Shown: positions 8,928 to 63,472 of the stretch, piece after piece
Layout: the number at the start of each line of letters is the position of its first letter
How positions within the stretch are numbered: the first letter of the stretch is position 1
Source of the DNA: Octopus vulgaris
Lineage: Eukaryota
Reading direction: 5' to 3'
DNA length: 64,000 bases
Assembly (NCBI GenBank): GCA_951406725.2
Contig: OX597843.1
Coordinates: forward strand, 6,138,001-6,202,000
Translations under genes and position numbers: made by a program
Notes under the pieces: model-generated
Told to the model about the DNA's origin: nothing
The model's database searches: none
Seen by the model: the letters and a program-made list of their open reading frames with translations, nothing else

Positions 8928-9993
8928 AATTCTTTCTCAATATTCAAAGGGCTGGGGGTGGCAAGCTGGGGTCAATGTAATCCCTTTTCTGCTCTAGGTA
9001 CAATGCCTGAAATTTCGGCGTAGGAGGCCATTCGGGTACTATTAGTGAAGACTGGACCTGGTGCGCACAGTCGCACGTAAGTAGCCGATCCTACAACGAC
9101 TTGTGCGTATGCAAATGAGTTGATTTTACAGAATAAAATAAAAGAATTTTTTAAAGAAAGTAAATAAAGTATTGTCCTCTTTTTGTTTAGCCTCTTGTGG
9201 GCAATAAAGGAATATATATTAAACAGAAGTGGCTGTGTGGTAAGTAGCTTGCTTACCAACCACATGGTTCCGGGTTCAGTCCCACTGCGTGGCATCTTGG
9301 GCAGCTGTCTTCTACTATAGCCCTGGGCCGACCAAAGCCTTGTGAGTGGATTTGGTAGACGACCAAAGCCTTGTGAGTGGATTTGGTAGACGACCAAAGC
9401 CTTGTGAGTGGATTTGGTAGACGGAAACTGAAAGAAGCCTGCTGCATGTGTGACGCAGGCATGGCTGTATGGTAAGAAGGCTGTCGTGTGTGTGGTGCAG
9501 GCGTGACTGTATGGTAAAGAAGCTTGCCTCCCAACCACATGGTTCTAGGTTCAGTCCCATTGCATGGCACCAAAATCTTGTGAATGGATTTGGTAGATGG
9601 AAACTCAAAGAAGCCCGTCGTATATCTGTATTTTTTTTGTTGTTGCCCCCCCCGTATACAAAAAAGTTCGTTTCTCGTTGTGTTCAATGTTTTTTTTTAT
9701 GTCTTGTACCCATACATGCATGTATATGTACATATTTACGTAGGTATGTATGTATATATTTATATTATATATGTGTGGTTTTTAGGGGAGTCTGGATGCA
9801 AAAGTATTCTGCTTTGAATAGAAGCGAAAGCAAAACTGAGTTGAAGAAAAAAACCCATTTTGAGAGAAAAAGTTCTAGGATGTTGTGGGAATAATGGTAG
9901 AATGTCTCTTATGTCTAATTCCACGGGCAGCCTTCAATTTTTCTTCTTTTTTTTTTAAACTTAAATATGTCATTTTTTACACAGTTTTTCAGT

Positions 9994-10158
9994 GGCGGCA
10001 AGCTGGCCCGGTCGTTTAGCGCGTCGGACGGAATTGCTTAGTTGTATTTCGTCCGCCGTGACGTCCTGGGGAGGTTCGCTTCCCCGGGACGTCTTTGCGG
10101 TCGGAGTACTTCTGAGCATTTTCGTTTGGCGCGCTAATTGGCAAGCTCGTCGCCTTTT
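9994..10158 (+). ncRNA. candidate Pol III-type 161-nt hairpin RNA
   Basis: GGCGGC...GTCGCC ends pair; near-continuous stem with many G-U pairs; TTCG apical loop within B-box-like GGTTCGCTTCC; TTTT immediately downstream; AT-rich TTAAATAT at about -33. Confidence 0.6.
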
Positions 10159-10205
10159 CGATCCCCTTTTGCATTTGACCTAGTTTAATCTGACCCCCCG
10201 TTTAT

Positions 10206-10329
10206 CGACCCCCAAATCGATAATGACTAAGAGGAAGTGACGTCAGGGACAGTGCCGAAAACTGAAACGACCCCCAAATCGATAATGACTAAGAGGAAGT
10301 GACGTCAGGGTCAGTGCCGAAAACTGAGA
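10206..10329 (+). promoter_or_regulatory. 2x62-bp tandem repeat, each unit carrying an overlapping ETS-CRE motif GGAAGTGACGTCA
   Basis: Units start at 10206 and 10268; candidate donor GAG|GTAAGG downstream at 10559/10560. Confidence 0.5.
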
Positions 10330-10609
10330 CAAACATTTATTGGAAGGAAGTCTGTTGCTCGCAGAACTTCGTGTTTGGTACACCCTCATGGAACTTTACC
10401 TTTTAATTATGTTTTTAAGTAGAAGTCTGTCTTGTATTGATGTCAGGTGGCAGAGACGGAGCCAGAGAGTTTAACAAATAGTGAAGAAAGGAAAATATAT
10501 ATTTGGTTGTCAATGGGCAACCTGTGGCCTGACGAGGACTCCCAACGAAAAGTTACGAGGTAAGGCCATTACGTTTTATTGCGCATACATACACATATAT
10601 ATAATAATT

Positions 10610-10935
10610 ATATTAATGAAATTGTTGTATACAGTGCTCAGGTGCCCCACAACTTGTTAAAAGTGCGTATAAAGCATCTGCAGTAATGTAGAAATGTCTG
10701 GGAAGTGAACAGTGTATGAGTTAGATAGATGCTTGCTTGTGTATGGAGGGGAGGAGAAGATCAGGTGTAGTGTTGGCGAATCTCAGGAAATTTTCAAGGA
10801 TGCAGTGCTCCAACAACTGATGCCGACAGTTTGTTCCATGCTTCAGCAAGTCTTAGCATGAAAAAATGTTTGCGAAGGTCATGGAAGGAGCTGTGCTGTT
10901 TTCTTACTTTGTAAACATGTCCACAGGTGTGGACA
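10610..10935 (-). mobile_element. CR1-clade LINE 3' fragment
   Basis: Partner copy 26452-26770 translates as RGHVYKVRKQH..FRKHFFTLRLAEAWNNLP, the typical CR1 ORF2 C-terminus. Confidence 0.75.
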
Positions 10936-10952
10936 TATACGTGTGTGTATAT

Positions 10953-11153
10953 CAGTGCTTTTCAACCTTTTTGCTGGAGCGGAACCCCAAGGAAACATTC
11001 CACTGGCTCGAGGAACCCCTGTGCAATAATTTAATACACTTGTGCACACATATCTGCACAGGAGACTTAAAAATTACTGCCGATTTTAGCAGTTTTGTAA
11101 CTTCTTGCGGAACCCCTGGACTTTACTGGTGGGACCCTGGTTGAAAACCACTG
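10953..11153. mobile_element. hAT-type MITE
   Basis: TIRs CAGTGCTTTTCAACC / GGTTGAAAACCACTG with a perfect 8-bp TSD GTGTATAT; related copies at 20804-20940, 26232-26432 and 36428-36575. Confidence 0.9.
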
Positions 11154-11485
11154 GTGTATATATATATATACACAAACATATACACTAATAAGGTTTATTT
11201 ATATGAATATGTGGAGGTGTATGTATAAATATCCAATTATACCAGTTTATCATTGGGGTGTTACTCCATAGCAATAATCTCTATTCATTCTAAACACTAA
11301 TTGAAGCACCCATAAGGAACCTACACGTGTGTCTGGATATTTATAACTACCTGTACGTGTATATCTTGGTGGATTAAAATTTATCTAAACATTAACACGA
11401 CATGTCTGTCCCATAAGAGCCAGAATAACACCCATTGTAACTTTTAATAAACTCATGGTTTTTAGGTTAAAATTTCACAACTTAA

Positions 11486-11685
11486 TCTCTCTCTCTATAT
11501 AAAGCTGAAGTTGTCTGTGTATGGCAGCCTTCAACTAACACTATCTCCTCCGAGACCCTGTGGGGCAAGTTGACCAAAATTGAGAGTATGATAGAAGAAG
11601 GCTTGCTCTTCCTTCCGTAGAAGAAAAAAATTCAAATCAAACCATGTTAACACAAAAAACTATTTACATCAAAAAGGTGCTTTTT
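11486..11685 (+). mobile_element. non-autonomous Helitron-like element, 5' part
   Basis: Starts TCTCTC..TATATAAAG; the same family shows a ...CCCGAGCAATACTACTAG|T 3' end at 23234 and at 16730 (minus); also 25650-25915. Confidence 0.6.
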
Positions 11686-13120: not shown

Positions 13121-14689
13121 GGGCCTTAACATTATTATTCATCTCTTCCCAACGCAAGTTATTTTGGCGAGGAATAAAACATGTCCCGGGGCGATCCTTC
13201 GGTATAGGTACCGGAAAGTGGCTTTGTTTACATTTCTGAAGATAACAGAAACCCTTTTCTCCCACTCCCTTATATACTCTTTTACTTGTTTCAGTCATTT
13301 GACTGCGGCCATGCTGGAGCACCGCCTTTAATCGAGCAACTCGACCCCGGGACTTATTCTTTGTAAGCCCAGTACTTATTCCATCGATCTCTTTTTTCCG
13401 AACCGCTAAGTAACGGAGACATAAACACACCAGCATCGGTTGTCAAGCAATGCTAGGGGGACAAACACACACACGCATATATATGGTGAAATGCCTAGCA
13501 GTATTTCGTCTGTCGTTACGTTCTGAGTTCGAATTCCGCCGAGGTTGACTTTGTCTTTCATCCTTTCGGGGTCGATGTAATCGACTTAATCCGTTTGTCT
13601 GTCCTTGTTTGTCCCCTCTATGTTTAGCCCCTTGTGGGTAGTAAAGAAATATATACGACAGGCTTCTTTCAGTTTCCGTCTACCAAATCTATTCACAAGG
13701 CTTTGGTCGGCCCGAGGCTATAGTAGAAGACACTTTCCCAAGGTGCCACGCAGTGGGACTGAACCATGTGGTTGGTAAACAAGCTACTTACCACACAGCC
13801 ACTCCTGCGCCTATATATATAAAAAAAAAGCACTTTCTTGAAATGTATCCGGTACTTATACCGAAGTCACGCCCATCTTTTATTTGTTTCGGTTATTAGA
13901 TTGCGGTCATGCTGGTCCACCATCTTGGAGAAGTTTTAAGTTGAATAAATTGATCCTTTTACTTCTTTTTTTTAAAGCCTAGTATTTATTCTATCGCTCT
14001 CTTTGCTGAACTGCTAATCTTCAGGGACATAAACACACCAACACCGGTGGATAAGCGATAGTAAGACACACACATGTATATACGACGGGCTGAATCAAGT
14101 AGAAGATACACTGAACATCATTTCTATTCATTCAGCTACACGTATTTTTAAGAGTCCATCCTTGCCCCTCCTTTATAAAATACGAAGGATGTGGTGTAGT
14201 CTGGAGACTTCATTTAAAGTTGTACTAAGTAATATTGCTTTCAAATTTTGGCACAAGGCCAGCAATTTCGGTGGGGTGGGAGCTAGTTGATTAAACTGAC
14301 CCCTCCCCCTTCTGTTTTAAGTATCCCCTCTAGTTTACACTGTTTGTCTGCTATTTCAGAATCCCAGATGGTATGGTGTTAAAGGATATTTTTACCCTAA
14401 CCATTTTTCCAAGCTTAAAGGAAAATTTTACACAAAACAGACTTCCCCTTGTTTAAATATGTTTTTGGTAGAATTCCTGTGGAATATTTCTTCTGGCTGA
14501 GACTATTTGCAAAATTCCTCTACTTCTGTTCTATATATTTTAGGGAGAAGGAAATCTGTACCTTATTTACATTGGATGGATATGTGTCGACAAACAATAT
14601 GAGGACACGTATCTGTCCAATATAAATCATTTCTCTACTTCGCTGTCTGGAATATGTTGGATATTTTATTCTGATTACAAAGGAAAATT

Positions 14690-15445
<756 letters not shown>

Positions 15446-20059: not shown

Positions 20060-20703
20060 GTGTTTACTCAACAAGAGATGTGTTTTACCAGGATTTAAAT
20101 CTCTAGTCAACACATTTGAAATTCTTCCCTGCCTTGTTCCTCCTCGACTTTGAAATCCGCAGAAGTGACTATCGGCGCCTCTTCGTCACCCTGCTCGCTG
20201 TCAACATCCCGACGGTCGTGTAGCTCTTTCCTCGGCTGTCATTGATATCCGCCTCTTCTGTCCTGTGTTTGTTTGCATTAAAACCTGGCACGACACCACT
20301 TATCAGTAAGAGTGCTGAATACTTGAAAGAATATGGTGAAGGGATCTTTAAACAGTTCTGTTTTTTACCTGAGAATCGCTGCCCCTGTTTTCTTTCGTGT
20401 TCACTTCTTATCAAATGCGATTGGTTCATTTTATTTGATACAGTTTCTCTCATTTTTGTTGTAGGTATTGCTGTTGTTCTCGTCGAAGTCAACAAACTTT
20501 GGTCAGGTTCCAGAGAGTCGCGGCTCGGAAGATTTGAATTTGTTAGCGAATTGCGAAGAACCCCAGTATAAAACTGGTCAGGCGCTGTTGAGACGATCAC
20601 AAAAGCTTCCATATTATCTTCAGAAAGTTTTACAGCATCCTTCACAAAAGAAGGAATTTGTCAGTGGAATGAGTCCAGCCGATGCAATGGTTTCGCTTGT
20701 CTG
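20060..20703 (-). pseudogene. deletion-riddled copy of the large orphan exon at 34049-35275
   Basis: Shares KDAVKLSED.MEAFVIVSTAPDQF and NKMNQSHLIRSEHERKQGQ; keeps the acceptor TAATTACAG but has many internal deletions and frameshifts. Confidence 0.85.
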
Positions 20704-23466: not shown

Positions 23467-23780
23467 TTATTCTCCTGTATGATTGGATATGTGTGCAGCC
23501 AATTGTGCTTTTTGAGAGAATGATATATCACACTGATAGGGCTTTTCCCCTGTATGAATACGTTTGTGCCTAGATAAGGTACCTCCATCGGAGAAGGATT
23601 TTCCACAGGCATCACAGTGATATTGTTTCTCTCCTGAGTGAGTGTGTTTAACCAAGGAATTGCTTCGAGAGAAGAATTTAGCACAAATGTTACATCGATA
23701 CGGCTTTTCACCTGTATGGAGGTGTTTGTGACTGTTAACAGAGAATGATTTACTACAGATCTCACAGTGATACGTGTAGC
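23467..23780 (-). pseudogene. truncated C2H2-ZnF paralog of the 14690 gene
   Basis: Shares FSRSNSLVKHTHSGEKQY and [13 protein letters not shown]; 5' part lost, fingers fused or deleted. Confidence 0.85.
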
Positions 23781-25176: not shown

Positions 25177-27213
25177 CTTGATTTTGTTTTCAGTTTGTTT
25201 GTATGTATGTATAGAAATTGAATTCACCTCAATAGACGTCATTGATTGGTTGAAATTGAAGAAGAAAAACCCAACAAATATCTTACAAACTCTAGAATTT
25301 TCTCAATAAAGCCAAGAGAAAAAGATGTTTTATAAACACATTCTACCAGTATACGAAGTTTAAAAGTGTTTAGTTACGAGGAAATTATTTTTAAAAACTG
25401 TCGGTCAAACCGAAAAGAACGTAGTATTATAATCTCTTACAGAACCTTTTTCTCAAATTTGAAGCCCCCAAAATTTGGGGGTTCCTTATATACGTTAAAA
25501 TAGGGTAATTCGAGATATTCGGCTGCTATTTCTAGCACGTGCAGTGACCACTTAGCGGCTATATCGTTGCCTTGTTGCTGTCAATTATAGAATTTTCTCA
25601 ATAAAGCCAAGAGAAAAAGATGTTTTATTTTGACACATTCTACCACTCTTTAAGTGAACATTTTTCTGGTTAATGTATGACGACACAGCAGGCAAAAAAT
25701 AGGGATTTTCAAAGGAAAAAACCCCACCTTTTTATGTAAATAGTTTTTGGTGTTAACATGGTCCGATTTGAATTTTTTCTTCTACGGAAGGAAGAGCAAG
25801 CCTTCTTCTATCATACTCTCAATTTTGGTCAACTTGTGCCACAGGGTCTCGGAGGAGATAGTGTTAGTTGAAGGCTGCCATACACAGACAACTTCAGCTT
25901 TATATAGAGAGAGATTAAGTTGTGAAATTTTAACCTAAAAACCATGAGTTTATTAAAGTTACAATGGGTGTTATTCTGGCTCTTATGGGACAGACATGTC
26001 GTGTTAATGTTTAGATAAATTTTAATCCACCAAGATATACACGTACAGGTAGTTATAAATATCCAGACACACGTGTAGGTTCCTTATGGGTGCTTCAATT
26101 AGTATTTAGAATGAATGAATAGAGATTATTGCTATGAAGTAACACCCCAATGATAAACTGGTATAATCGGATATTTATACATACACCTCCACATATTCAT
26201 ATAAATAAACCTTATTAGTGTATATATATACCAGTGGTTTTCAACCAGGGTTCCGCCAGTACAGTCCAGGGGTTCCGCAAGAAGTTACAAAACTGCTAAA
26301 ATCGACAGTAATTTTTAATTCTCCTGAGCAGATATGTGTGCATAAGACTATTAAATTATTGCACAGGGGTTCCTCGAGCCAGTGGAATGTTTCCTTGGGG
26401 TTCCGCTCCAGCAAAAAGTTTGAAAAGCACTGATACACACACATATGTCCACATCCGTGGACATGTTTACAAAGTCAGAAAACAGCACAGCTCCTTCCAT
26501 GACTTTCGCAAACATTTTTTTACGCTAAGACTTGCTGAAGCATGGAACAATCTGCCGGCATCAGTTGTCGGAGCACTGCATCCTTCAAAACTTCCTGAGA
26601 TTCGCCAACACTACACCTGATTTTCTCCTCCCCTCCATACACAAGCAAGCATCTATCTGACTCGTACACTGTTTACTTCCCAGACATTTCTACACCACTG
26701 CAGATGCTTTATACGAACTTTGGACAAGTTGTGGGGCACCTGTTCACTGTATACAATCATTTCATTAATATTATATATATGGGTATGTATGCGCAATAAA
26801 ACGTAATGGCCTTACCTCGTAACTTTCCGTCGGGAGTCCTCGTTAGGTTGCCCATTGACAACCAAATATACATATATATTTTCCTTTCTTCACTATTTGT
26901 TAAACTCTCTGGCTCCGTCTCTGCCACCTGACATCAATACAAGACAGACTTCTACTTAAAAACATAATTAAAAGGTAAAGTTCCATGAGGGTGTACCAAA
27001 CACGAAGTTCTGCGAGCAACAGACTTCCTTCCAATAAATGTTTGTTTCAGTTTCCGGCACTGTCCCTGACGTCACTTCCTCTTAGTCATTATCGATTTGG
27101 GGGTCGTTTCAGTTTTCGGCACTGTCCCTGGCGTCACTTCCTCTTAGTCATTATCGATTTGGGGGTGGATAAACTGGGTCAGATTAAACTAGGTCAAATG
27201 CAAAAGGGGATCG

Positions 27214-27378
27214 AAAAGGCGACGAGCTTGCCAATTAGCGCGCCAAACGAAAATGCTCAGAAGTACTCCGACCGCAAAGACGTCCCGGGGAAGCGAACCT
27301 CCCCAGGACGTCACGGCGGACGAAATACAACTAAGCAATTCCGTCCGACGCGCTAAACGACCGGGCCAGCTTGCCGCC
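27214..27378 (-). ncRNA. second copy of the candidate 161-nt hairpin RNA
   Basis: Base-for-base reverse complement of 9994-10158. Confidence 0.6.
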
Positions 27379-28040: not shown

Positions 28041-28788
28041 TCACTCAGGTTGAGTATGAGTGAAGTTATGTTTAGTCAAGTGTGCTCTTTGAGAGAACGA
28101 TTTGCCACAGGTATGACAAACATAGGGTTTTTCTCCTGTGTGAACACGTTGGTGAGTAGTTAACTGATCGTGGAGAGAGAAAGATTTTCCACAGGTGTCA
28201 CAGTGGTATGGCTTCTCACCTGTATGAATACGTATGTGAATGGTCAAGCTACCTGCCTGAGTGAAGGACTTGCCACAGATGTCACAACGATATTGTTTCT
28301 CTCCAGCATGAATGTGTTTGTGCTTCGTCAGAGCGCTTCCATTCGAGAATGCTTTTGCACAGGTAGGGTTTCTCGTCGCTGTGAATTCGGCTGTGGGTCG
28401 TCAGGTTGCCACTCCGCGAAAAAGATTTTCCACAGATGTCACAGTCGTACGGCCTCTCTCCTGTATGAATGCGCCTGTGAGCCGTTAAGTTACCACTTAG
28501 AGTGAACGACTTACCACAGATGTCACAGTGATAGGGCTTCTCTCCTGTATGAATACGTTTGTGATTATTTTGAAAGAACGAAGTACCACAAATATCACAG
28601 CGATATGGTTTCTCTCCTGTATGAGTACGTTTGTGAATAGAGAGGCTATCTTTGCGAGAAAATGTCTTTTTGCAAACATCACAAGGATATGCTGTTTTCC
28701 TTATATCTTTCGGCATCTCGTCAACAAAATTAATCCTTTTAGGCTCTGATTTACATTTAATATTGTCCTCACACAATTCAGTTTCCGT
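28041..28788 (-). pseudogene. C2H2 zinc-finger array gene (about 8 fingers), disrupted
   Basis: TGEKPY-linked fingers; probable start codon now ACG (28788-28786, in frame: (M)ETELCEDNIK); deleted helix in finger 2; frameshift near 28355; upstream 29000-29310 resembles 14315-14680. Confidence 0.85.
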
Positions 28789-29719
28789 CTCTCACCGAAA
28801 TATAAAGATGCTTTTCTATTTCTCGGAGTGGTCGGCGTTAGGAAGGGCATCCAGCTGTAGAAACTCTGCCAGATCAATATTGGAACCTGGTGCAGCCATC
28901 AGGTTCGCCAGCCCTCGGTTGAATCGTCCAACCCAAGCTAGCATGGAAAGCGGACATTAAACGACGATGATGATTCCTAAAGTGATTCTGTGTTATTTTC
29001 ATCAACTGTGATCTTCGTCAATATCCGAAGATGCTGCAAGCTCCGTCATTATCCAAGTTTCATGAGAACACGATATCATCTTCAGCGCATTCAAGACAGT
29101 GAAGTAGAGAAGTTTTACTAAACAATGTCAGTTAAATGAAATATTCCATTGCAATTTACCAAAGATTAATACAAACAGGGTAAAATTTGTTCTGTGTACA
29201 ATTTTCCTTTAGACTTGGTAAATGGTCGATGGATCCAGAGTAAAAATGTCCTTTAATGCCAAGCCATCTGGAATAGCAGAGAAACAGTATATACTAGAGA
29301 GGATACTTAAAATGTTGTGTGTGTGTCTTTTGTTTCAGTCATTGAAAAGTGTGCATTTTATGAAGAAAGGCAAGAACGGTTACCAAGGAAATCCAAGTTT
29401 ACCTTTCGATTTCGTATTAAGGTTATGTCATACAACCTCATGTAATCCCCATATTTCCAGACTACACATGTATCTTCCGTTTTGGAATTTGGCTTACAAG
29501 ATTCTTTATAATATAAAGTTTATATGAATTCGTGTGTTGAAGCATATTATTGGAAGGAAGAGCAAGCCTTCTTCTATCATACTCTGAATTTTGGTCAACT
29601 TGTGCCACAGGGTATATATTTCGGAATGGTCATTTTGCCAGTTTAGCCCATAAAAACACATGCACGATATATTTGGTGTTACTTTGCTTCAGTGTTATTT
29701 TTTACATTAATCTTATTTC

Positions 29720-34048: not shown

Positions 34049-35275
34049 TTAGTCAACAAGAGATGTATTTTTAATTTTACCAGGATTTACATCTCTGGTC
34101 AACCCATTTTGCACACTTGCTCCAAATTTGAAATTCTTCCCTGCCTTGTTCCTCCTCGACTTTAAAATCCGCAGAAGTGCCTGGCTGCGCTCTTTCTGCA
34201 TGAGAGTGATGACAACGTTCTCCTTCGGCGCCTCTTCATCACCCTCCTCGCTGTCAACATCCCGATGGTCGTGAAGCTCTTCCCCGTTGCATTTAGACGT
34301 AACCTTTTTTCGGCTGTCATTGATGTCCGTGTCTTGGGTGGACAGCTTCCTTTTGAAGGCTTTCGTCCTGTGTTTGTTTGGATTCTTTGTTGCATTAAAG
34401 CCTGGGACTTGTACGACAGCACCTGCAGTTGTTGCGTTCCGTTTGTGAAGTAAATTTGTCAGGAACAGTGCTGAATGCTTGAAAGAATATGGCGAAGGGA
34501 TCTTTAAACAGTTCTGCTTTTTACCTGAGAATTGCTGCCCCTGTTTTCTTTCATGTTCACTTCTTATCAAATGCGATTGGTTCATTTTATTTGATACAGT
34601 TTCTCTCATCATTTTTGTTGTAGGTATTGCTGCTGTTGTTGTTGTTCTCGTCGAAGTCAACAAACTTTGGTCGGCTTCCAGAGAGTCGCGGCACTTTACT
34701 GGGTGGTATGGAACTAAAGGCTCGGAAGATTTGAATTTATTAACGATTTGCGAAGAACCCCAGAATGAAAACTGGTCCGGCGCTGTTGAAACGATCACAA
34801 AAGCTTCCATATCGTCTTCAGAAAGTTTTACAGCATCCTTCACAAAAGAAGGAATTTCGTTCGCTTTCTCTGAGCGACCTTCGTTTGACAATTCTGTCTG
34901 TTCAACTTTTGAAATAACAGGAAATTGTTTATTGTTAAGGAATTTGTCAGCAGAGAGAAGAGATTCTTTGGTAGATCCGTTGCCAGGCATAAAGTTTAAG
35001 TTTCTGTGGTTCTGTGTAAGGTCCAAAGCTTGGTCCTCGACTTGATGGAATTGGTTGAGATTAGGGACGGCAATGATTGATGCAGTACCATACAGAGATG
35101 GAAAAGCATGATTATTATTGTTGTTAGTGGAATAAGTCCAGCCGATGCAATTTGGGGAATTTTTATCATCGTAGCTTTTGTCTCTGTCAGCAAACCCGCC
35201 AGTGTGGTCGATGGTTTTGGAAGATGCAATGGTGTCGCACTGGGATGGCTTGTCATTCTTTCTCGTTGTGCTTGT
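34049..35275 (-). CDS. large, probably terminal coding exon (408 codons) of an uncharacterised protein
   Basis: Frame open from a polypyrimidine/TTACAG acceptor (phase 0, TSTTRKNDK...) to the stop at 34049; an in-frame stop lies just upstream of the acceptor; basic C-terminal patch. Confidence 0.72.
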   Translation of the reverse strand, partial: TSTTRKNDKPSQCDTIASSKTIDHTGGFADRDKSYDDKNSPNCIGWTYSTNNNNNHAFPSLYGTASIIAVPNLNQFHQVEDQALDLTQNHRNLNFMPGNGSTKESLLSADKFLNNKQFPVISKVEQTELSNEGRSEKANEIPSFVKDAVKLSEDDMEAFVIVSTAPDQFSFWGSSQIVNKFKSSEPLVPYHPVKCRDSLEADQSLLTSTRTTTTAAIPTTKMMRETVSNKMNQSHLIRSEHERKQGQQFSGKKQNCLKIPSPYSFKHSALFLTNLLHKRNATTAGAVVQVPGFNATKNPNKHRTKAFKRKLSTQDTDINDSRKKVTSKCNGEELHDHRDVDSEEGDEEAPKENVVITLMQKERSQALLRILKSRRNKAGKNFKFGASVQNGLTRDVNPGKIKNTSLVD

Positions 35276-42570: not shown

Positions 42571-42697
42571 TCTCAAAACAAGAACTAAAATCAACTCTGA
42601 ACATGTCGTGCCGCAAACAGATCAGAACTCCACAAAATGACACTGCAAGCATAGAACAGCAATCAAAATCATGTAAACAAAACAAAATTCACAACAA

Positions 42698-44220
42698 CGT
42701 AGTCCTAGGTACACTATGTATGAATAAAAGACGGGATGGTCACAACTGGAACATGTTTTAAATCATAGGTCTGCTGGATCAGGACTGACCTGGGGCTAAA
42801 CAACAAGGGAGGCACATTAGATAATGTAGTCCTAGATACACTATGTATGAATAAAAGACAGGATGGTCACAGTTGGAACATGTTTTAAATCATAGGTCTG
42901 CTGGATCAGGACTGACCTGGGGCTAAACAACAAGGGAGGCACATTAGATAATGTAGTCCTAGATACACTATGTATGAATAAAAGACAGGATGGTCACAGT
43001 TGGAACATCCTTTAAATTATAGCTCTGCTGGATCAGGACTGACCTGGGGCTAAACAACAAGGGAGGCACATTAGATAATGTAGTCCTAGGTACACTATGT
43101 ATGAATAAAAGACAGGATGGTCACAGTTGGAACATCCTTTAAATTATAGCTCTGCTGGATCTAAGCTGACCAGGGGCTAAACAACAATAAGGGAGAACAC
43201 GTTAGATAATGTAGTCCTAGATGCACTATGCCTAAATAAAAAACAGGATGGTCACAATTGGAACATCCTTTAAATTATAGCTCTGCTGGATCAGGACTGA
43301 CCTGGGGCTAAACAACAAGGGAGGCACATTAGATAATGTAGTCCTAGGTACACTATGTATGAATAAAAGACAGGATGGTCACAGTTGGAACATCCTTTAA
43401 ATTATAGCTCTGCTGGATCTAAGCTGACCAGGGGCTAAACAACAATAAGGGAGAACACGTTAGATAATGTAGTCCTAGATGCACTATGCCTAAATAAAAA
43501 ACAGGATGGTCACAATTGGAACATCCTTTAAATTATAGCTCTGCTGGATCAGGACTGACCTGGGGCTAAACAACAAGGGAGGCACATTAGATAATGTAGT
43601 CCTAGGTACACTATGTATGAATAAAAGACAGGATGATCACAGTTGGAACATCCTTTAAATTATAGCTCTGCTGGATCTAAGCTGACCAGGGGCTAAACAA
43701 CAATAAGGGAGAACACGTTAGATAATGTAGTCCTAGATGCACTATGCCTGAATAAAAAACAGGATGGTCACAATTGGAACATCCTTTAAATTATAGCTCT
43801 GCTGGATCAGGACTGACCTGGGGCTAAACAACAAGGGAGGCACATTAGATAATGTAGTCCTAGGTACACTATGTATGAATAAAAGACAGGATGGTCACAG
43901 TTGGAACATCCTTTAAATTATAGCTCTGCTGGATCTAAGCTGACCAGGGGCTAAACAACAATAAGGGAGAACACGTTAGATAATGTAGTCCTAGATGCAC
44001 TATGCCTGAATAAAAAACAGGATGGTCACAGTTGGAACATCTCTGATCATAGGTCTGTCTGGATCAGGACTGACCTGGGGCTAAACAACAAGGGAGGCAC
44101 ATTAGATAATGTAGCCCTAGATACACTGTGCCTGAATAAAAGACGGGATGGTCACAACTGGAACATGTTTTAAATCATGGCTCTGCTGGATCTAAGCTGA
44201 CCAGGGGCTAAACATCAACA
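42698..44220. repeat. 127/131-bp satellite, about 12 units, with a 258-bp dimeric higher-order repeat
   Basis: GGATC anchors at 42776, 42903, 43030, 43157, 43288, 43415, 43546, 43673, 43804, 43931, 44061 and 44188. Confidence 0.95.
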
Positions 44221-45263
44221 AAGGGGGTCGACCTTGAGTGACTTCAACACAACCAAAGCATTCTATAGGGGATTAGTGGAGGGGAGGTACGACGACGATC
44301 TCGGGGCAAACCTGGGCGTCGACGAGGAATACCTGACCCGCCTGTTTCAAACGACTTTCGGCCCGGGACCTATGGACAACTTCCAGAGATCCCTGGCCTG
44401 GCGGTGCTACCGAGAAGCGCTACCCGTTCGGGATAAGCTCTATAGGCATGGCTCGAGAAACACGGGGCCGACCTGCCCGAGATGCGGGCAGAGCGACGAA
44501 ACCGCTCTGCACGCAATCGTGCAGTGTCCAGCAATTTCCCACCTGTGGGCTTATGTCGAACGACTGCTGTCACGTGTGGGACGTGTCGGTTTATCAGCCG
44601 AGTCTATCGTTAATATCGTCACGCCTCCTTCGTTCAAACGGGAAGGAAGAGCTATTTTTATCATACTTGTGGCTATGGCGAAAGAATGTATCTGGTGGAT
44701 GCGCCTGAAAGGATTAGAGACAAACACTTTCCTCTCTGGTCAATCTCTCATCAACTTCTTCAAGTATCACTTGAAGAGGAAAGTGAGAGTAGAGAGGCAA
44801 GTGTTGTCTAGTGAATGTTTTAAAAAAAGATGGGTGAATGTAGCAAGGATGGCACGTATGAATGACGAAGCCACCTTGACTATGATTCTATGAACCATAA
44901 AAATTAATACAGAGAGTTGCTTATTTGCAAAAAAAAAAAAAAGAAATATAACATGTGACTTCATTGACCGAGGTTACCGTGGTCTTTTCCGTAGGCTTTT
45001 CTTTCCACGAGTAAACCTCACCTGTCCTCCCCTTTACACTTCATATTGACATTTCTGTGATAACGATCCCTACTGATCAATTTTTTTTCCTCTCCCCCTT
45101 TTTTTTAACCCACCCCCTTTTTTTGTCCTCTTTCTCTCCTTTTACGATCCCTTTTGATCGAAACTCCCCCCTCATTTTTTTTTTTTCCTTTAACCTTCAA
45201 AAGAAAAGCTCTACCTTGTAATTTGTTCTATCTGTGTGCAGCCCTGTGTGGCTAATAAAGAAA
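44221..45263 (+). mobile_element. L1/Tx1-clade LINE, 5'-truncated (zf-RVT domain + 3' UTR)
   Basis: ORF 44234-44893: LAWR...ALPVRDKL...CPRCGQSDETALHAIVQCP....LW; pyrimidine-rich UTR; AATAAA at the end. Confidence 0.88.
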
Positions 45264-50366: not shown

Positions 50367-51576
50367 AGGAGGCGCAATGGCCCAGTGGTTAGGGCAGCGG
50401 GCTCGCGGTCGGAGGATCGCGGTTTCGATTCCCAGACCGGGCGTTGTGTGTGTTTATTGAGCGAAAACACCTAAAAGCTCCACGAGGCTCCGGCAGGGGA
50501 TGGTGGTGATCCCTGCTGTACTCTTTCACCACAACTTTCTCTCACTCTTACTTCCTGTTTCTGTTGTACCTGTATTTCAAAGGGCCGGCCTTGTCACTCT
50601 CTGTGTCACGCTGAATATCCCCGAGAACTACGTTAAGGGTACACGTGTCTGTGGAGTGCTCAGCCACTTACATGTTAATTTCTCGAGCAGGCTGTTCCGT
50701 TGATTCGGATCAACCGGAACCCTCGTCGTCGTAACCGACGGAGTGCTTCCATTTCAAAGGGCCGGCCTTGTCACTCTGAATATCCCCGAGAACTACGTTA
50801 AGGGTACACGTGTCTGCGGAGTGCTCAGCCACTTACACGTTAATTTCACGAGCAGGCTGTTCCGTTGATTCGGATCAACCGGAACCCTCGTCGTCGTAAC
50901 CGACGGAGTGCTTCCATTTCAAAGGGCCGGCCTTGTCACTCTGAATATCCCCGAGAACTACGTTAAGGGTACACGTGTCTGCGGAGTGCTCAGCCACTTA
51001 CACGTTAATTTCACGAGCAGGCTGTTCCGTTGATTCGGATCAACCGGAACCCTCGTCGTCGTAACCGACGGAGTGCTTCCATTTCAAAGGGCCGGCCTTG
51101 TCACTCTGAATATCCCCGAGAACTACGTTAAGGGTACACGTGTCTGCGGAGTGCTCAGCCACTTACACGTTAATTTCACGAGCAGGCTGTTCCGTTGATT
51201 CGGATCAACCGGAACCCTCGTCGTCGTAACCGACGGAGTGCTTCCATTTCAAAGGGCCGGCCTTGTCACTCTGAATATCCCCGAGAACTACGTTAAGGGT
51301 ACACGTGTCTGCGGAGTGCTCAGCCACTTACACGTTAATTTCACGAGCAGGCTGTTCCGTTGATTCGGATCAACCGGAACCCTCGTCGTCGTAACCGACG
51401 GAGTGCTTCCATTTCAAAGGGCCGGCCTTGTCACTCTGAATATCCCCGAGAACTACGTTAAGGGTACACGTGTCTGCGGAGTGCTCAGCCACTTACACGT
51501 TAATTTCACGAGCAGGCTGTTCCGTTGATTCGGATCAACCGGAACCCTCGTCGTCGTAACCGACGGAGTGCTTCCC
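50367..51576 (+). mobile_element. SINE family D (tRNA-like head) with five extra tandem 165-bp tail units
   Basis: A box TGGCCCAGTGG and B box GTTTCGATTCC; repeats start at 50751, 50916, 51081, 51246 and 51411; 10-bp TSD ATATATTTAC (50357-50366, 51577-51586). Confidence 0.92.
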
Positions 51577-52128
51577 ATATATTTACGAAAGGGAGACAAA
51601 CTCCCCCAGCAGCCAGGTCTGCATCTAGAGACACGCATGTTTCAGGGTCTTCTCTATATTTCTAAACACTATTTAAATCTATTTATCTCACCACTCTCAC
51701 TATTTGACAAGTATTCACTATATTTTATCTGCTATATATATAGCTCAATATCAAACCTGGGTCCCAAACCGTTAATTCGTTAACCATTGGTTAAACGTAG
51801 TTAACATTTTCGTGAACGGTTTAATTTTCAAGTTAACTTTGGAAATCATTATCGGACTAATTAACTTCCGTTAACTCAAGTCAACTTGAGTTAACTTCCT
51901 TTAACTGAAGAACGGTGACGTGAAACTCTTGGGTTCGAGTTTGTATAGATTCTTTCGGTTTCAATAAAGAGTATTTTACTCTATCTTCGGTATTCGAGCA
52001 CTAATTTTACCAACTTGTTTTGCATTTGTGTGCTTATTTATGTGTATGTGTGCGTGGGTGTGTGTGTGTGTGTGTAAAGATAGATAAATAGATACATATA
52101 CAGATGGAGAGATAGATAGATAGACGGG

Positions 52129-54194: not shown

Positions 54195-54983
54195 ATCCCA
54201 TATCATCATCTGGAAAAGATTTTCTAACTAGAAAGGGTGTGGCCTGGTCAGCCTGTAATGACATGCATAAGATCTAGTCATCAAATCTAAGTAGAGACTT
54301 CAAACTTAAAATCTTCAAAGCCACAGTCGAACCAATTCTACTATATGGCTCAGAAACCTGGACGTTATCAAAGAAGCTTGAGAGGCGGTTGGATGGAACC
54401 TACACTCGCCTCCTTATGAGAGCTCAAAATCTCTCGTGGAAGCACCATCCAACCAAAATGCAAATATATGGGAAACTACCACCTGTGTCATCTCTTGTGA
54501 AAGGTAGGAGAGTCCAGTTTGCTGAACATTGTTGTAGAGCTGAAAAAGAGGTAATCTCTACTCTTCTCCTCTGGAAGCCATCTACTCGCAATACCAGAGG
54601 GCGCACACTCTTTGAGAGGTGATTGGATGGAACCTACACTCGCCTCCTTATGAGAGCTCAAAATCTCTCGTGGAGGCGCCATCCAACCAAAATGCAAATA
54701 TATGGGAAACTACCACCTGTGTCATCTCTTGTGAAAGGTAGGAGAGTCCAGTTTGCTGGACATTGTTGTAGAGCTGAAAAAGAGGTAATTTCTACTCTTC
54801 TCCTCTGGAAGCCATTTACTCGCAATACCAGAGGGCGAACACTCTCCTACCCTGATGTAATCTCCAGGGATACAGGCATCCAGCAACAGGACCTCCGTAA
54901 TGCCATGATGGACCGTGAAGTCCGGCGTAGCATGGTAAATTCCATTGTCTCGACCACGGTCGAACAATGATGATGATGATGAT
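54195..54983 (+). mobile_element. RTE-like LINE 3' end with a 234-bp internal duplication
   Basis: KLKIFKATVEPILLYGSETWTL...LDGTYTRLL..AQNLSW..H...RRVQFAGHC; (TGA)n tail; 54380-54613 repeated from 54614. Confidence 0.9.
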
Positions 54984-54989
54984 CCCGGT

Positions 54990-55855
54990 AACGTTGTGTC
55001 CTAATCTTGACAATATATAACGTGGTGTCCTAATCTTGACAATATATAACGTGGTGTCCTAATCTTGACAATATATAACGTGGTGTCCTAATCTTGACAA
55101 TATATAACGTGTTGTCCTAATCTTGACAATATATAACGCGTTGTCCTAATCTTGACAATATATAACGCGTTGTCCTAATCTTGACAATATATAACGCGTT
55201 GTCCTAATCTTGACAATATATAACGCGGTGTCCTAATCTTGACAATATATAACGCGGTGTCCTAATCTTGACAATATATAACGCGGTGTCCTAATCTTGA
55301 CAATATATAACGTGGTGTCCTAATCTTGACAATATATAACGTGGTATCCTAATCTTGACAATATATAACGTGGTGTCCTAATCTTGACAATATATAACGT
55401 GGTGTCCTAATCTTGACAATATATAACGTGGTATCCTAATCTTGACAATATATAACGCGGTGTCCTAATCTTGACAATATATAACGTGGTATCCTAAACT
55501 TGACAATATATAACGTGGTATCCTAATCTTGACAATATATAACGTGGTATCCTAATCTTGACAATATATAACGTGGTATCCTAATCTTGACAATATATAA
55601 CGTGGTATCCTAATCTTGACAATATATAACGCGGTGTCCTAATCTTGACAATATATAACGTGGTGTCCTAATCTTGACAATATATAACGTGGTATCCTAA
55701 ACTTGACAATATATAACGTGGTGTCCTAATCTTGACAATATATAACGTGGTATCCTAATCTTGACAATATATAACGTGGTATCCTAATCTTGACAATATA
55801 TAACGCGGTGTCCTAATCTTGACAATATATAATGCGGTGTCCTAATCTTGACAAT
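54990..55855. repeat. 29-bp minisatellite, about 30 units
   Basis: Unit CCTAATCTTGACAATATATAACG(T/C)G(G/T)T(G/A)T. Confidence 0.97.
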
Positions 55856-56854
55856 GTGGAGCACTTGCAGAAAAACGCACAGCTTGGAACCGCTCGAATA
55901 CTCCGGATGGTGTTCGAAAAAATAAGGGGTGTCACCTTAGTTCACTGGTAGTGAACAGCTGACACCGTAGTACATGTCCAGCGTTAGAAGCTGTGCAAAG
56001 GCAATAATAATAATAATAATAATAATAATTAATTCTTTTATTGGCCACAAGGGTTGACAAAAATTAATTATAACAAAAAGGGACAAAACAGGACGAAAGG
56101 TTACAAAGTGTTTTAATGATGATAATAATCCTTTCTACTGGAGGCCTGAAATTTAGGGAGAGGAGACTAGTCGATGACATCAACCCCAGTTTTTTACTGG
56201 TACTTAATTTATTGACCCCCAAGAGGATGAAGGGCAAAGTCGGCTTGGTGGAATTCGACTTTGCCTTTCGATAATAATAATAATAATAATAATAGCCCTT
56301 TCTACTGGAAGCACACGGCCCCAAATTTGGGGAAAGTGATTAAGTCGATTGCATAGACCCCAGTGCGTGACTGGTACTTATTTCATCAACCCCTAAAGGA
56401 TGAAAGGCAAAGTTGACCTCTGTCTCTTTGTGTATCTATCTACCTACCTACCGACCTACCTACCTGTCTGTCAGCCTGTCAGCCTGTCTGTCTGTCTGTC
56501 AGCCTGTCTGTCTGTCTATCACACTCTCTTTCTATCTATTTATCTAACTGTGTGTTGTGTGTGCGGGTATGTTGTGTGTGTGTACGTGTATGTATGTTTG
56601 TCTATCTATAAACAAACACACACACACATGTATATAAAAACGTGCATATGTCTGTGTGTGTGAGTGAATGTGTGTATATGAGTGTGTGTATATGTGTATA
56701 CGTGCGCCGAAGTATGTATTTTGTTTCTGATGAGCAACTCCATTAGCGAAAGCGCAGATTCTTTGCTAATATGCTTCAAATATGTAAACGCCAATTACAC
56801 ACCCATACATACAAACACATACCTACACACACACATATATAGCAGTACATGCCG

Positions 56855-62596: not shown

Positions 62597-62778
62597 TCTC
62601 TAGGCGTCTTCTCGCCTCGTCCTTCTCCTCATTGCCACCACAACCACCAGTAACACAGCTTATAAAGAGGCCGTTCGGTGTGCGCGACATAGCAGCCAGA
62701 ACTTCCTTAATGTCTTCAAAGAACGAAGGACTTATTAGAGTAAGAAACCCATGGGTACACCAAGGGAAAAGAAATAGA

Positions 62779-63472
62779 AAAAGACAGGATGGTCACAGCT
62801 GGAACGTCTTTGATCATAGGTCTGTCTGGATCAGGACTGACCTGGGGCTAAACAACAGCAATAAGGAAGGACACATTAGATAATGTAGTCCTAGATACAC
62901 TATGTCTGAATAAAAGACAGGATGGTCACAGCTGGAACGTCTTTGATCATAGGTCTGTCTGGATCAGGACTGACCTGGGGCTAAACAACAGCAATAAGGA
63001 AGGACACATTAGATAATGTAGTCCTAGATACACTATGTCTGAATAAAAGACAGGATGGTCACAGCTGGAACGTCTTTGATCATAGGTCTGTCTGGATCAG
63101 GACTGACCTGGGGCTAAACAACAGCAATAAGGAAGGACACATTAGATAATGTAGTCCTAGATACACTATGTCTGAATAAAAGACAGGATGGTCACAGCTG
63201 GAACGTCTTTGATCATAGGTCTGTCTGGATCAGGACTGACCTGGGGCTAAACAACAGCAATAAGGAAGGACACATTAGATAATGTAGTCCTAGATACACT
63301 ATGTCTGAATAAAAGACAGGATGGTCACAGCTGGAACATCTTTGATCATAAGTCTGCTGGATCAGGACTGACCTGGGGTTAAACACTATGCCTGAACCAT
63401 AGACGGGATGGTCACAACTGGAGCATCTTTGATCAGAGGTCTGTCTGGATCAGTCTGACCTGGGGCTAAACA
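62779..63472. repeat. 133-bp satellite, same family as 42698-44220
   Basis: AAGACAGGATGGTCACAG at 62781, 62914, 63047 and onward; about 4 near-identical units plus a degenerate end. Confidence 0.95.

Follow-up and report, generated by a model that had tools for sequence, protein, structure and literature searches.

A SINE-derived rod-like hairpin of Octopus vulgaris as the likely 5' end of a spliced, probably non-coding RNA

The hairpin and its surroundings

We have analyzed a window of 64,000 nucleotides in the genome of Octopus vulgaris (contig OX597843.1, here C30, positions 6,138,001 to 6,202,000 of the forward strand); coordinates below are positions in this window unless a contig is named. 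A hairpin of 161 nt occupies 9994-10154 on the + strand. It folds into a rod with 65 pairs. In the minimum free energy (MFE) structure 10 of these are G-U, and the MFE of -111.4 kcal/mol (z -11.2) was equalled by 0 of 200 shuffles. The - strand of the same stretch reached -73.7 kcal/mol (z -5.4). Folding both strands bore out the pairing over nearly the full length that a preliminary description of this DNA had proposed. When the arms were aligned with each other under symmetric scoring, in which G-U was given no preference over A-C, there were 55 Watson-Crick pairs, 12 G-U, 1 A-C and 8 other oppositions. The imbalance of 12 to 1 (two-sided binomial p = 0.0034) agrees with the approximately ten to one counted earlier by hand.

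The 5' arm (9994-10074, +) contains a degenerate A-box-like stretch at 10004-10014 and the 3' arm (10079-10154, +) an internal run of four T (T4) at 10119-10122 (+). Between them is a TTCG loop (10075-10078, +) that lies, as first described, within a B-box-like sequence, GGTTCGCTTCC (10073-10083); however, this sequence is devoid of the adenine A58 and the loop is closed by a G-C pair. The extra-stable form of this tetraloop is C(UUCG)G, so the closing pair excludes that form here. Two more T4 tracts are found 3' of the rod at 10155-10158 and 10167-10170 (+), the positions already given for them. Searches of Rfam over the window gave 0 matches at the gathering threshold, miRNA families included, consistent with the initial impression that the sequence belongs to no known family. 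At E up to 5 there were 6 weak matches around the hairpin, all well under the cut-offs, and ARAGORN detected 0 genes over the 64,000 nt.

The hairpin is not unique. An identical second copy is located at 27218-27378 on the - strand, with its donor at 26815, inside an inverted duplication (9588-11679 versus 27770-25725, 92%), and there are more copies elsewhere. Window positions 8461-44224 are largely a rearranged duplicate (mostly 75-94%) of C30:4545000-4597000, 1.6 Mb away, and each of the two regions has an inverted pair of hairpin units. The same duplicated blocks carry C2H2 zinc-finger arrays at 14675-15400 (+), 23525-23772 (-) and 28090-28791 (-), and for three hairpin copies one such array, on the same strand, has its end 0.7-1.5 kb upstream. 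An octopus-specific gene (P0001, P0003; 84% to an O. bimaculoides protein, no Pfam match) has its exons 2 and 3 at 39971-39783 and 35275-34052 (-), and truncated copies of its last exon are found at ~20700-20000 and at the locus L082. Tandem arrays extend over 42686-44270, 50604-51728, 54873-55984 and 62646-63443, with units of ~127-131, 165, 29 and 133 bases.

Origin of the arms

To judge by sequence comparison, both arms of the hairpin derive from a tRNA-type SINE that is abundant in the genome, namely from its head. We searched the octopus's own genome (2.8 Gb) and, among the 40 scored of 109 candidates, found 11 long matches on the window's contig and 29 matches to the 5' arm only on other contigs. 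The latter are the heads of a dispersed tRNA-type SINE, for which a 25-letter pattern with one mismatch permitted had 72,281 matches in the genome. The 5' arm is this head in sense orientation and equals the majority of the dispersed copies at 57 of 72 positions. The 3' arm is the same head in antisense, equals the majority at 47 of 68 positions, and its longest perfect run of complementarity is 9 nt.

Searches with the upstream flank revealed a long fold-back form of 173-192 nt on contigs C21, C23, C26, C27, C28 and C30. It is centred on the GTCGAC palindrome of the SINE, where it has a GCGA loop, and in each arm up to 58 of 72 positions agree with the SINE majority. The short form, to which the window copy belongs, has lost a portion of the apex. 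In most copies both arms carry identical variant letters at SINE positions 34 and 59, from which we infer that a single SINE head was copied back onto itself. The perfect fold-back junction has 0 occurrences in the genome, which makes the fold-back a rare event and no routine by-product. Loose inverted pairs of SINE heads were also found (8, in 3 of 30 loci), with small numbers of G-U and A-C both ways. Between its arms the element contains no SINE body and no tail, and there is no sign of retrotransposition.

The changes of the window copy relative to the SINE majority, read on the + strand, were A>G 10, C>T 9, T>C 3 and G>A 2. They bear on another possible founder, a folded SINE RNA edited by ADAR and then reverse-transcribed, in which A>G would have been fixed on one strand with no later selection. 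The excess of A>G over T>C (10 vs 3) fits this scenario, but C>T is equally enriched (9 vs 2), which ADAR does not make, and G-U pairs were still arising after the DNA-level duplication (7 new G-U vs 1 A-C in the short lineage). We consider such an edited retrocopy very unlikely.

Multiplication of the copies

We have located ~18 hairpin copies, long and short, and these copy counts are lower bounds. The short form was found only on C30, in at least 12 copies. Of these, 8 (including a truncated one) resemble the window copy, and the other 4 make up a second group, ~80% identical. All the copies have in common at least 100-270 bases of upstream flank as well as downstream sequence, indicating that they multiplied as DNA duplications. 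This bears on the possibility, raised at the outset, that the hairpin is nothing but a MITE or SINE foldback. The origin by fold-back of a SINE stands, whereas dispersal as a mobile repeat does not, since the copies share their flanks and the perfect junction occurs 0 times against 72,281 heads. The long inverted arms and the presence of copies on six contigs could suggest a MITE-like or otherwise mobile fold-back element; with the common flanks, just ~18 copies found and the junction absent from the genome, this is extremely improbable. By the shared flanks and the lack of perfect junctions an active SINE or MITE is likewise largely refuted.

The upstream flank at 9875-9940, together with loci L064-L077, represents an older dispersed repeat with 71-83% matches on several contigs. 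By eye it is tRNA-like, and its B-box-like part is gone in the short forms. At one of these loci, L077, the equivalent position is occupied by an ordinary SINE, which has an apparent target-site duplication.

Contigs over the hairpin and their probable splicing

At least half of the words searched for were contained in 20 of the 24 listed sequencing runs (7 studies), none of them recorded as RNA. We examined eight runs for cover, five transcriptome-sized (X1, X5, X9, X10 and X15) and three large and DNA-sized; run contigs are unstranded and convey neither expression level nor true end. In the three DNA-sized runs the upstream DNA was covered and the donor at 10560 was crossed unbroken. The picture was different in the small runs. 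X1, X5, X9 and X10, from four studies, have one contig each, starting at 9996, 9992, 10006 and 10010 without a loose end and extending to 10227-10562. The region 9785-9969 had no cover in X5, X9 and X10 and in X1 just a 4.7-fold paralog contig, a gap that alone is no proof. Against a start at the hairpin, the X15 contig begins near 9829, ~165 bases upstream of it. A start of the RNA at the base of the hairpin, as seen in four of the five runs, is a weak hint, and strong duplexes may distort sequencing libraries, as described in passages of PMC10317233. The contigs of X1, X5, X9 and X10 displayed no row of A>G over the hairpin; such contigs drop rare variants and are uninformative about editing.

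The contigs of all five small runs pass through both T4 tracts and into the rest of an inferred first exon (10155-10559, +). This exon ends at a splice donor, GAG/GTAAG (10557-10564, +), the point at which X1 and X15 contigs either depart from the genome sequence or stop. The X1 contig leaves at 10559, before GTAAG, and the 30 letters that follow match 35261-35232 (-) exactly over the 30 letters shown, directly behind an AG. This match (35232-35261, -) lies within the last exon (35275-34052, -) of the octopus-specific gene. A truncated duplicate of that exon is found 5 kb downstream of the hairpin paralog L004 on the same strand, and there a canonical acceptor precedes nearly identical letters. 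In X15 three contigs stop at 10559 and one runs on into letters resembling the acceptor at 20465 or 34624 (+). The first of these acceptor-like sites, TTGTAG/GTATTGCTG (20459-20473, +), is preceded by a pyrimidine tract and resembles the start of the joined end, and the second (34618-34632, +) does likewise. Just the first bases of the X15 joined end match the window, and no match at up to 3 mismatches was found in 88 loci. A back-spliced circle would be a further explanation of the X1 join, the full exon being located upstream of a hairpin copy, but a linear join to the L082-type exon requires just one base difference.

The GT-AG joins in X1 and X15 indicate that these runs are RNA with + polarity, so that the contigs covering the hairpin very probably represent + strand RNA. 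The contigs of X1, X5, X9 and X15 do not contain the 63-bp tandem duplication of the window's exon and are nearer to the paralogs L003/L004 than to the window copy. The expression would therefore be that of the hairpin family, the contigs pointing to L003/L004-like paralogs rather than to the window copy. With an L004-type join the joined frames end within ~35 codons, and several short upstream frames are present in exon 1, for which reason the spliced RNA is probably non-coding. When the whole inferred exon was folded, 63 bases of the 5' arm kept pairing with the 3' arm.

The 63-bp tandem duplication covers 10206-10330, and each unit contains GGAAGTGACGTCA (10233 and 10295), which we take to be an ETS-CRE-like motif. 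The same stretch has a sub-threshold match to SNORD49 (17.6 bits vs 37). In loci L006, L010 and L042 an octamer-containing insert takes the place of the duplication 3' of the hairpin.

Polymerase and promoter

The preliminary description had pointed to hallmarks of Pol III and proposed a Pol III RNA, a Dicer substrate or an ADAR substrate. A stand-alone Pol III RNA of ~161 nt is not supported. The contigs cross both T4 tracts and, in two runs, continue into spliced exons. Key adenines of the Pol III consensus are A14 (A box) and A58 (B box), the latter invariant. The A14 position is G in every hairpin copy that retains the stretch, and in all short forms A58 has given way to C or T, so that neither box of a type-2 promoter is intact there. 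As for an upstream promoter, the ATGCAAAT octamer and a TATATA box were present in the clustered U6 genes (4 of the 12 viewed, 48 found), while the 100 bases upstream of the hairpin contain neither, only TAAATA. This U6 cluster (L097-L100, C1:139.42 Mb) is a tandem array of slightly divergent genes; the remaining 8 viewed copies have no octamer/TATATA promoter and may be retrocopies.

A version of the Pol III proposal deserves separate consideration. In it a snaR-like RNA of ~161-177 nt would run from G9994 to the T4 tracts, and the unstranded contigs would have joined it, or its read-through, to an independent spliced transcript whose promoter lies downstream. Four of the five contigs start within 16 nt of G9994, and the depth of X15 climbs near the donor, as this would predict. 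The paired ends are directly followed by T4 in 12 of 13 examined copies and by T3 in one. This terminal T4 is not the usual insertion flank of the SINE, since AAAA directly precedes 0 of 32 dispersed heads, and the long forms retain the SINE's B-box. On the other hand, besides the loss of A14 and A58 in all short forms and the absence of the U6-type octamer and TATATA, the internal T4, pointed out before as a possible early terminator, is present in the window copy's group at 10119, ahead of the terminal T4, and single contigs reach from the hairpin to the donor. Short non-polyadenylated RNA is, besides, usually missing from such libraries. We regard a present-day Pol III product as rather unlikely. 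A Pol III phase in the history of the family, maybe in the long ancestor, is conceivable because of the terminal T4.

The long RNA is likely made by Pol II. The TATA-like run noted earlier is present as TAAATA at 9962-9967 (+), and an initiator-like TCAGT follows at 9989-9993 (+); the two would fit a core promoter of Pol II from which transcription begins near 9991.

Probable selection on the pairing

The dispersed SINE heads provided a reference for the G-U excess. We compared pairs within two sets of 32 heads, in the first of which 9 had been chosen for resemblance to the hairpin. A G-U minus A-C difference of 11 or more was reached by 0 of 496 pairs in each set (0/992), the largest differences being 10 in the first and 6 in the second. 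Among pairs with at least 9 transitions none was as lopsided as the hairpin (0/229 and 0/176). Changes of the G-U type and of the A-C type were 34:30 in the flanks and 19:5 in the hairpin (p = 0.03).

The hairpin was also less variable than its surroundings. Among four copies, variable sites were 0 of 161 in the hairpin vs 115 of 1432 in the flanks (p = 6e-6), and among seven copies 8 of 161 vs 94 of 694 (p = 0.002), the invariant stretch coinciding with the hairpin and its short tail. Identity among the four copies is also explicable by gene conversion, which counts against selection. Of 30 changes in the short lineage 20 ended paired, vs 13 of 35 private changes in the long copies (p = 0.025), and G-U intermediates between pair states were found at SINE positions 41, 52 and 70. 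The pair counts were made over 7 short and 6 long copies (the identical L001, L003, L004 and L011 and the truncated L008 left out), and SINE positions 47-48 of the window group, offset by one in the projection, were scored as breaks. Of 380 cells 98.4% were paired, a value that 0 of 500 shuffles reached. Pairs changed on both sides were only 3 of 55, a number attained by 296 of 500 shuffles. The copies are not independent, since ~9 of the G-U pairs come from one long ancestor that already had 9 G-U and 3 A-C.

Several of these observations would also be expected from a neutral fold-back in a duplication-prone transcribed region, shaped by strand-biased mutation (A>G and C>T on the non-template strand), arm-to-arm repair and gene conversion. 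The SINE origin of the arms and the scarcity of double changes are in line with it, and the long copies likewise gain G-U over A-C (9:5). The two short groups are 16-20% diverged in the hairpin, as compared with 9-16% in the flank upstream of it. In the flanks, singleton changes were A>G 18, C>T 16, T>C 7 and G>A 23, and the A>G excess (18 vs 7) reveals a partial mutational bias that weakens the case for selection. However, the C>T excess of the hairpin (9 vs 2) has no equivalent in the flanks (16 vs G>A 23), pairs were kept more by the short lineage than by the long copies, and the variation-free stretch corresponds to the hairpin with its short tail. An entirely neutral history therefore appears unlikely to us. 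That selection preserves the pairing is, to go by the sequences, a good deal more plausible, and the original suggestion of a + strand RNA with selected pairing survives as a probable one, given the dispersed heads and the variable sites. Two further organisms, C and D, have 75% and 56% of the words. Since several paralogs are represented in their contigs, each as short pieces, no single ortholog is separable.

Comparison with known systems

Vault, Y and VA RNAs have paired termini and an oligo-U tract. The octopus hairpin shares both, but differs from them in its SINE origin, its degenerate internal promoter and the absence of an Rfam match. Closer parallels are found in two other groups. Like the octopus hairpin, the Drosophila hpRNAs described in PMC10317233 are long inverted repeats that lie within spliced transcripts and are both young and confined to a lineage. 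In that account hp-tHMG-solo has its hairpin near the 5' end, the arms of hp-ODox2 are transposon-derived, and copies have been amplified in clusters. An inverted repeat within a spliced transcript is what the GT-AG joins in two of the five small runs indicate here, on paralog-like contigs. However, the definition of hpRNAs rests on siRNAs that depend on Dicer-2 and have complementary targets (PMC10317233), whereas the octopus arms have drifted from the SINE; and molluscs are reported (PMC12479628) to have no dedicated siRNA Dicer.

Primate snaR, according to PMC3045588, is also SINE-derived, highly structured, reshaped by deletion and lineage-restricted, was spread by segmental duplication into one-chromosome clusters, and has oligo-U after the structure. 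It is a discrete Pol III RNA of 117 nt with an intragenic promoter, and it derives from a single Alu monomer (same paper). The octopus hairpin is instead one head folded on itself, with degenerate boxes and longer spliced contigs. By analogy, its anatomy would resemble that of the fly hpRNAs and its history that of primate snaR, and we assign it to neither class.

Among octopus repeats, tRNA-derived SINEs of the OK/OR families are known in Octopus (Ohshima and Okada 1994, cited in PMC4758252). We liken the hairpin to tRNA-derived SINEs by homology of the head and place it in no named family. SINE fragments are the retroelements most frequent in octopus lncRNAs, with SINEUP-like pairs, according to PMC9115989, whose main text does not contain the word hairpin; compared with the SINEs in those lncRNAs, the element described here differs in forming a self-complementary rod that bears signs of selection. 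A microRNA precursor is characterized by a stem of ~35 pairs and by defined mature and star reads. Six short motifs were not found in 24,410 readable characters of the supplements of PMC9699675, on octopus miRNA, and a catalogued miRNA may lie within the stem. In the open-licence literature we found no paper on the hairpin.

A probable young structured RNA gene

Altogether, we propose that the locus is probably a young structured RNA gene and not a stand-alone small RNA. A SINE head likely folded back at its own GTCGAC palindrome and gave rise to a G-U-rich rod, which would then have been multiplied by segmental duplication. The rod would now be the likely 5' end of a spliced, probably Pol II and probably non-coding RNA. 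Its G-U pairs would allow drift away from the SINE sequence, the rod remaining paired yet imperfect, and the stem would be a putative substrate for double-strand-RNA enzymes (Drosha/Dicer or ADAR). To the reading as a whole, in which the hairpin begins a spliced, probably non-coding RNA, likely made by Pol II, and its pairing is under likely selection, we give a probability of roughly 45%. Cleavage of the stem into putative ~22-nt RNAs is doubtful. Silencing of the SINE itself by the hairpin is unlikely, because molluscs are reportedly without a dedicated siRNA Dicer and the 3' arm offers just 9 nt of perfect complementarity.

A bolder possibility, and quite an improbable one, would be an octopus hpRNA-like family born from one fold-back, with its own Pol II start and donor, two subfamilies that are distinct in sequence yet retain the rod, and putative guides made by the miRNA machinery. 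If true, a phylum from which endogenous siRNAs are reported to be absent would possess a hairpin-RNA pathway, with the intermediates still in the genome. Should small RNAs or heavy editing be found, the rod would be a defined endogenous dsRNA substrate in an animal whose ADAR is very active and which reportedly has no siRNA Dicer. If neither were found, it would be a clear case of strand-biased G-U enrichment mimicking selection. The octopus genome keeps the series from dispersed SINE to long fold-back to two short G-U-rich subfamilies in spliced transcripts, and the way in which a repeat gives rise to a structured RNA gene would thereby be directly testable.
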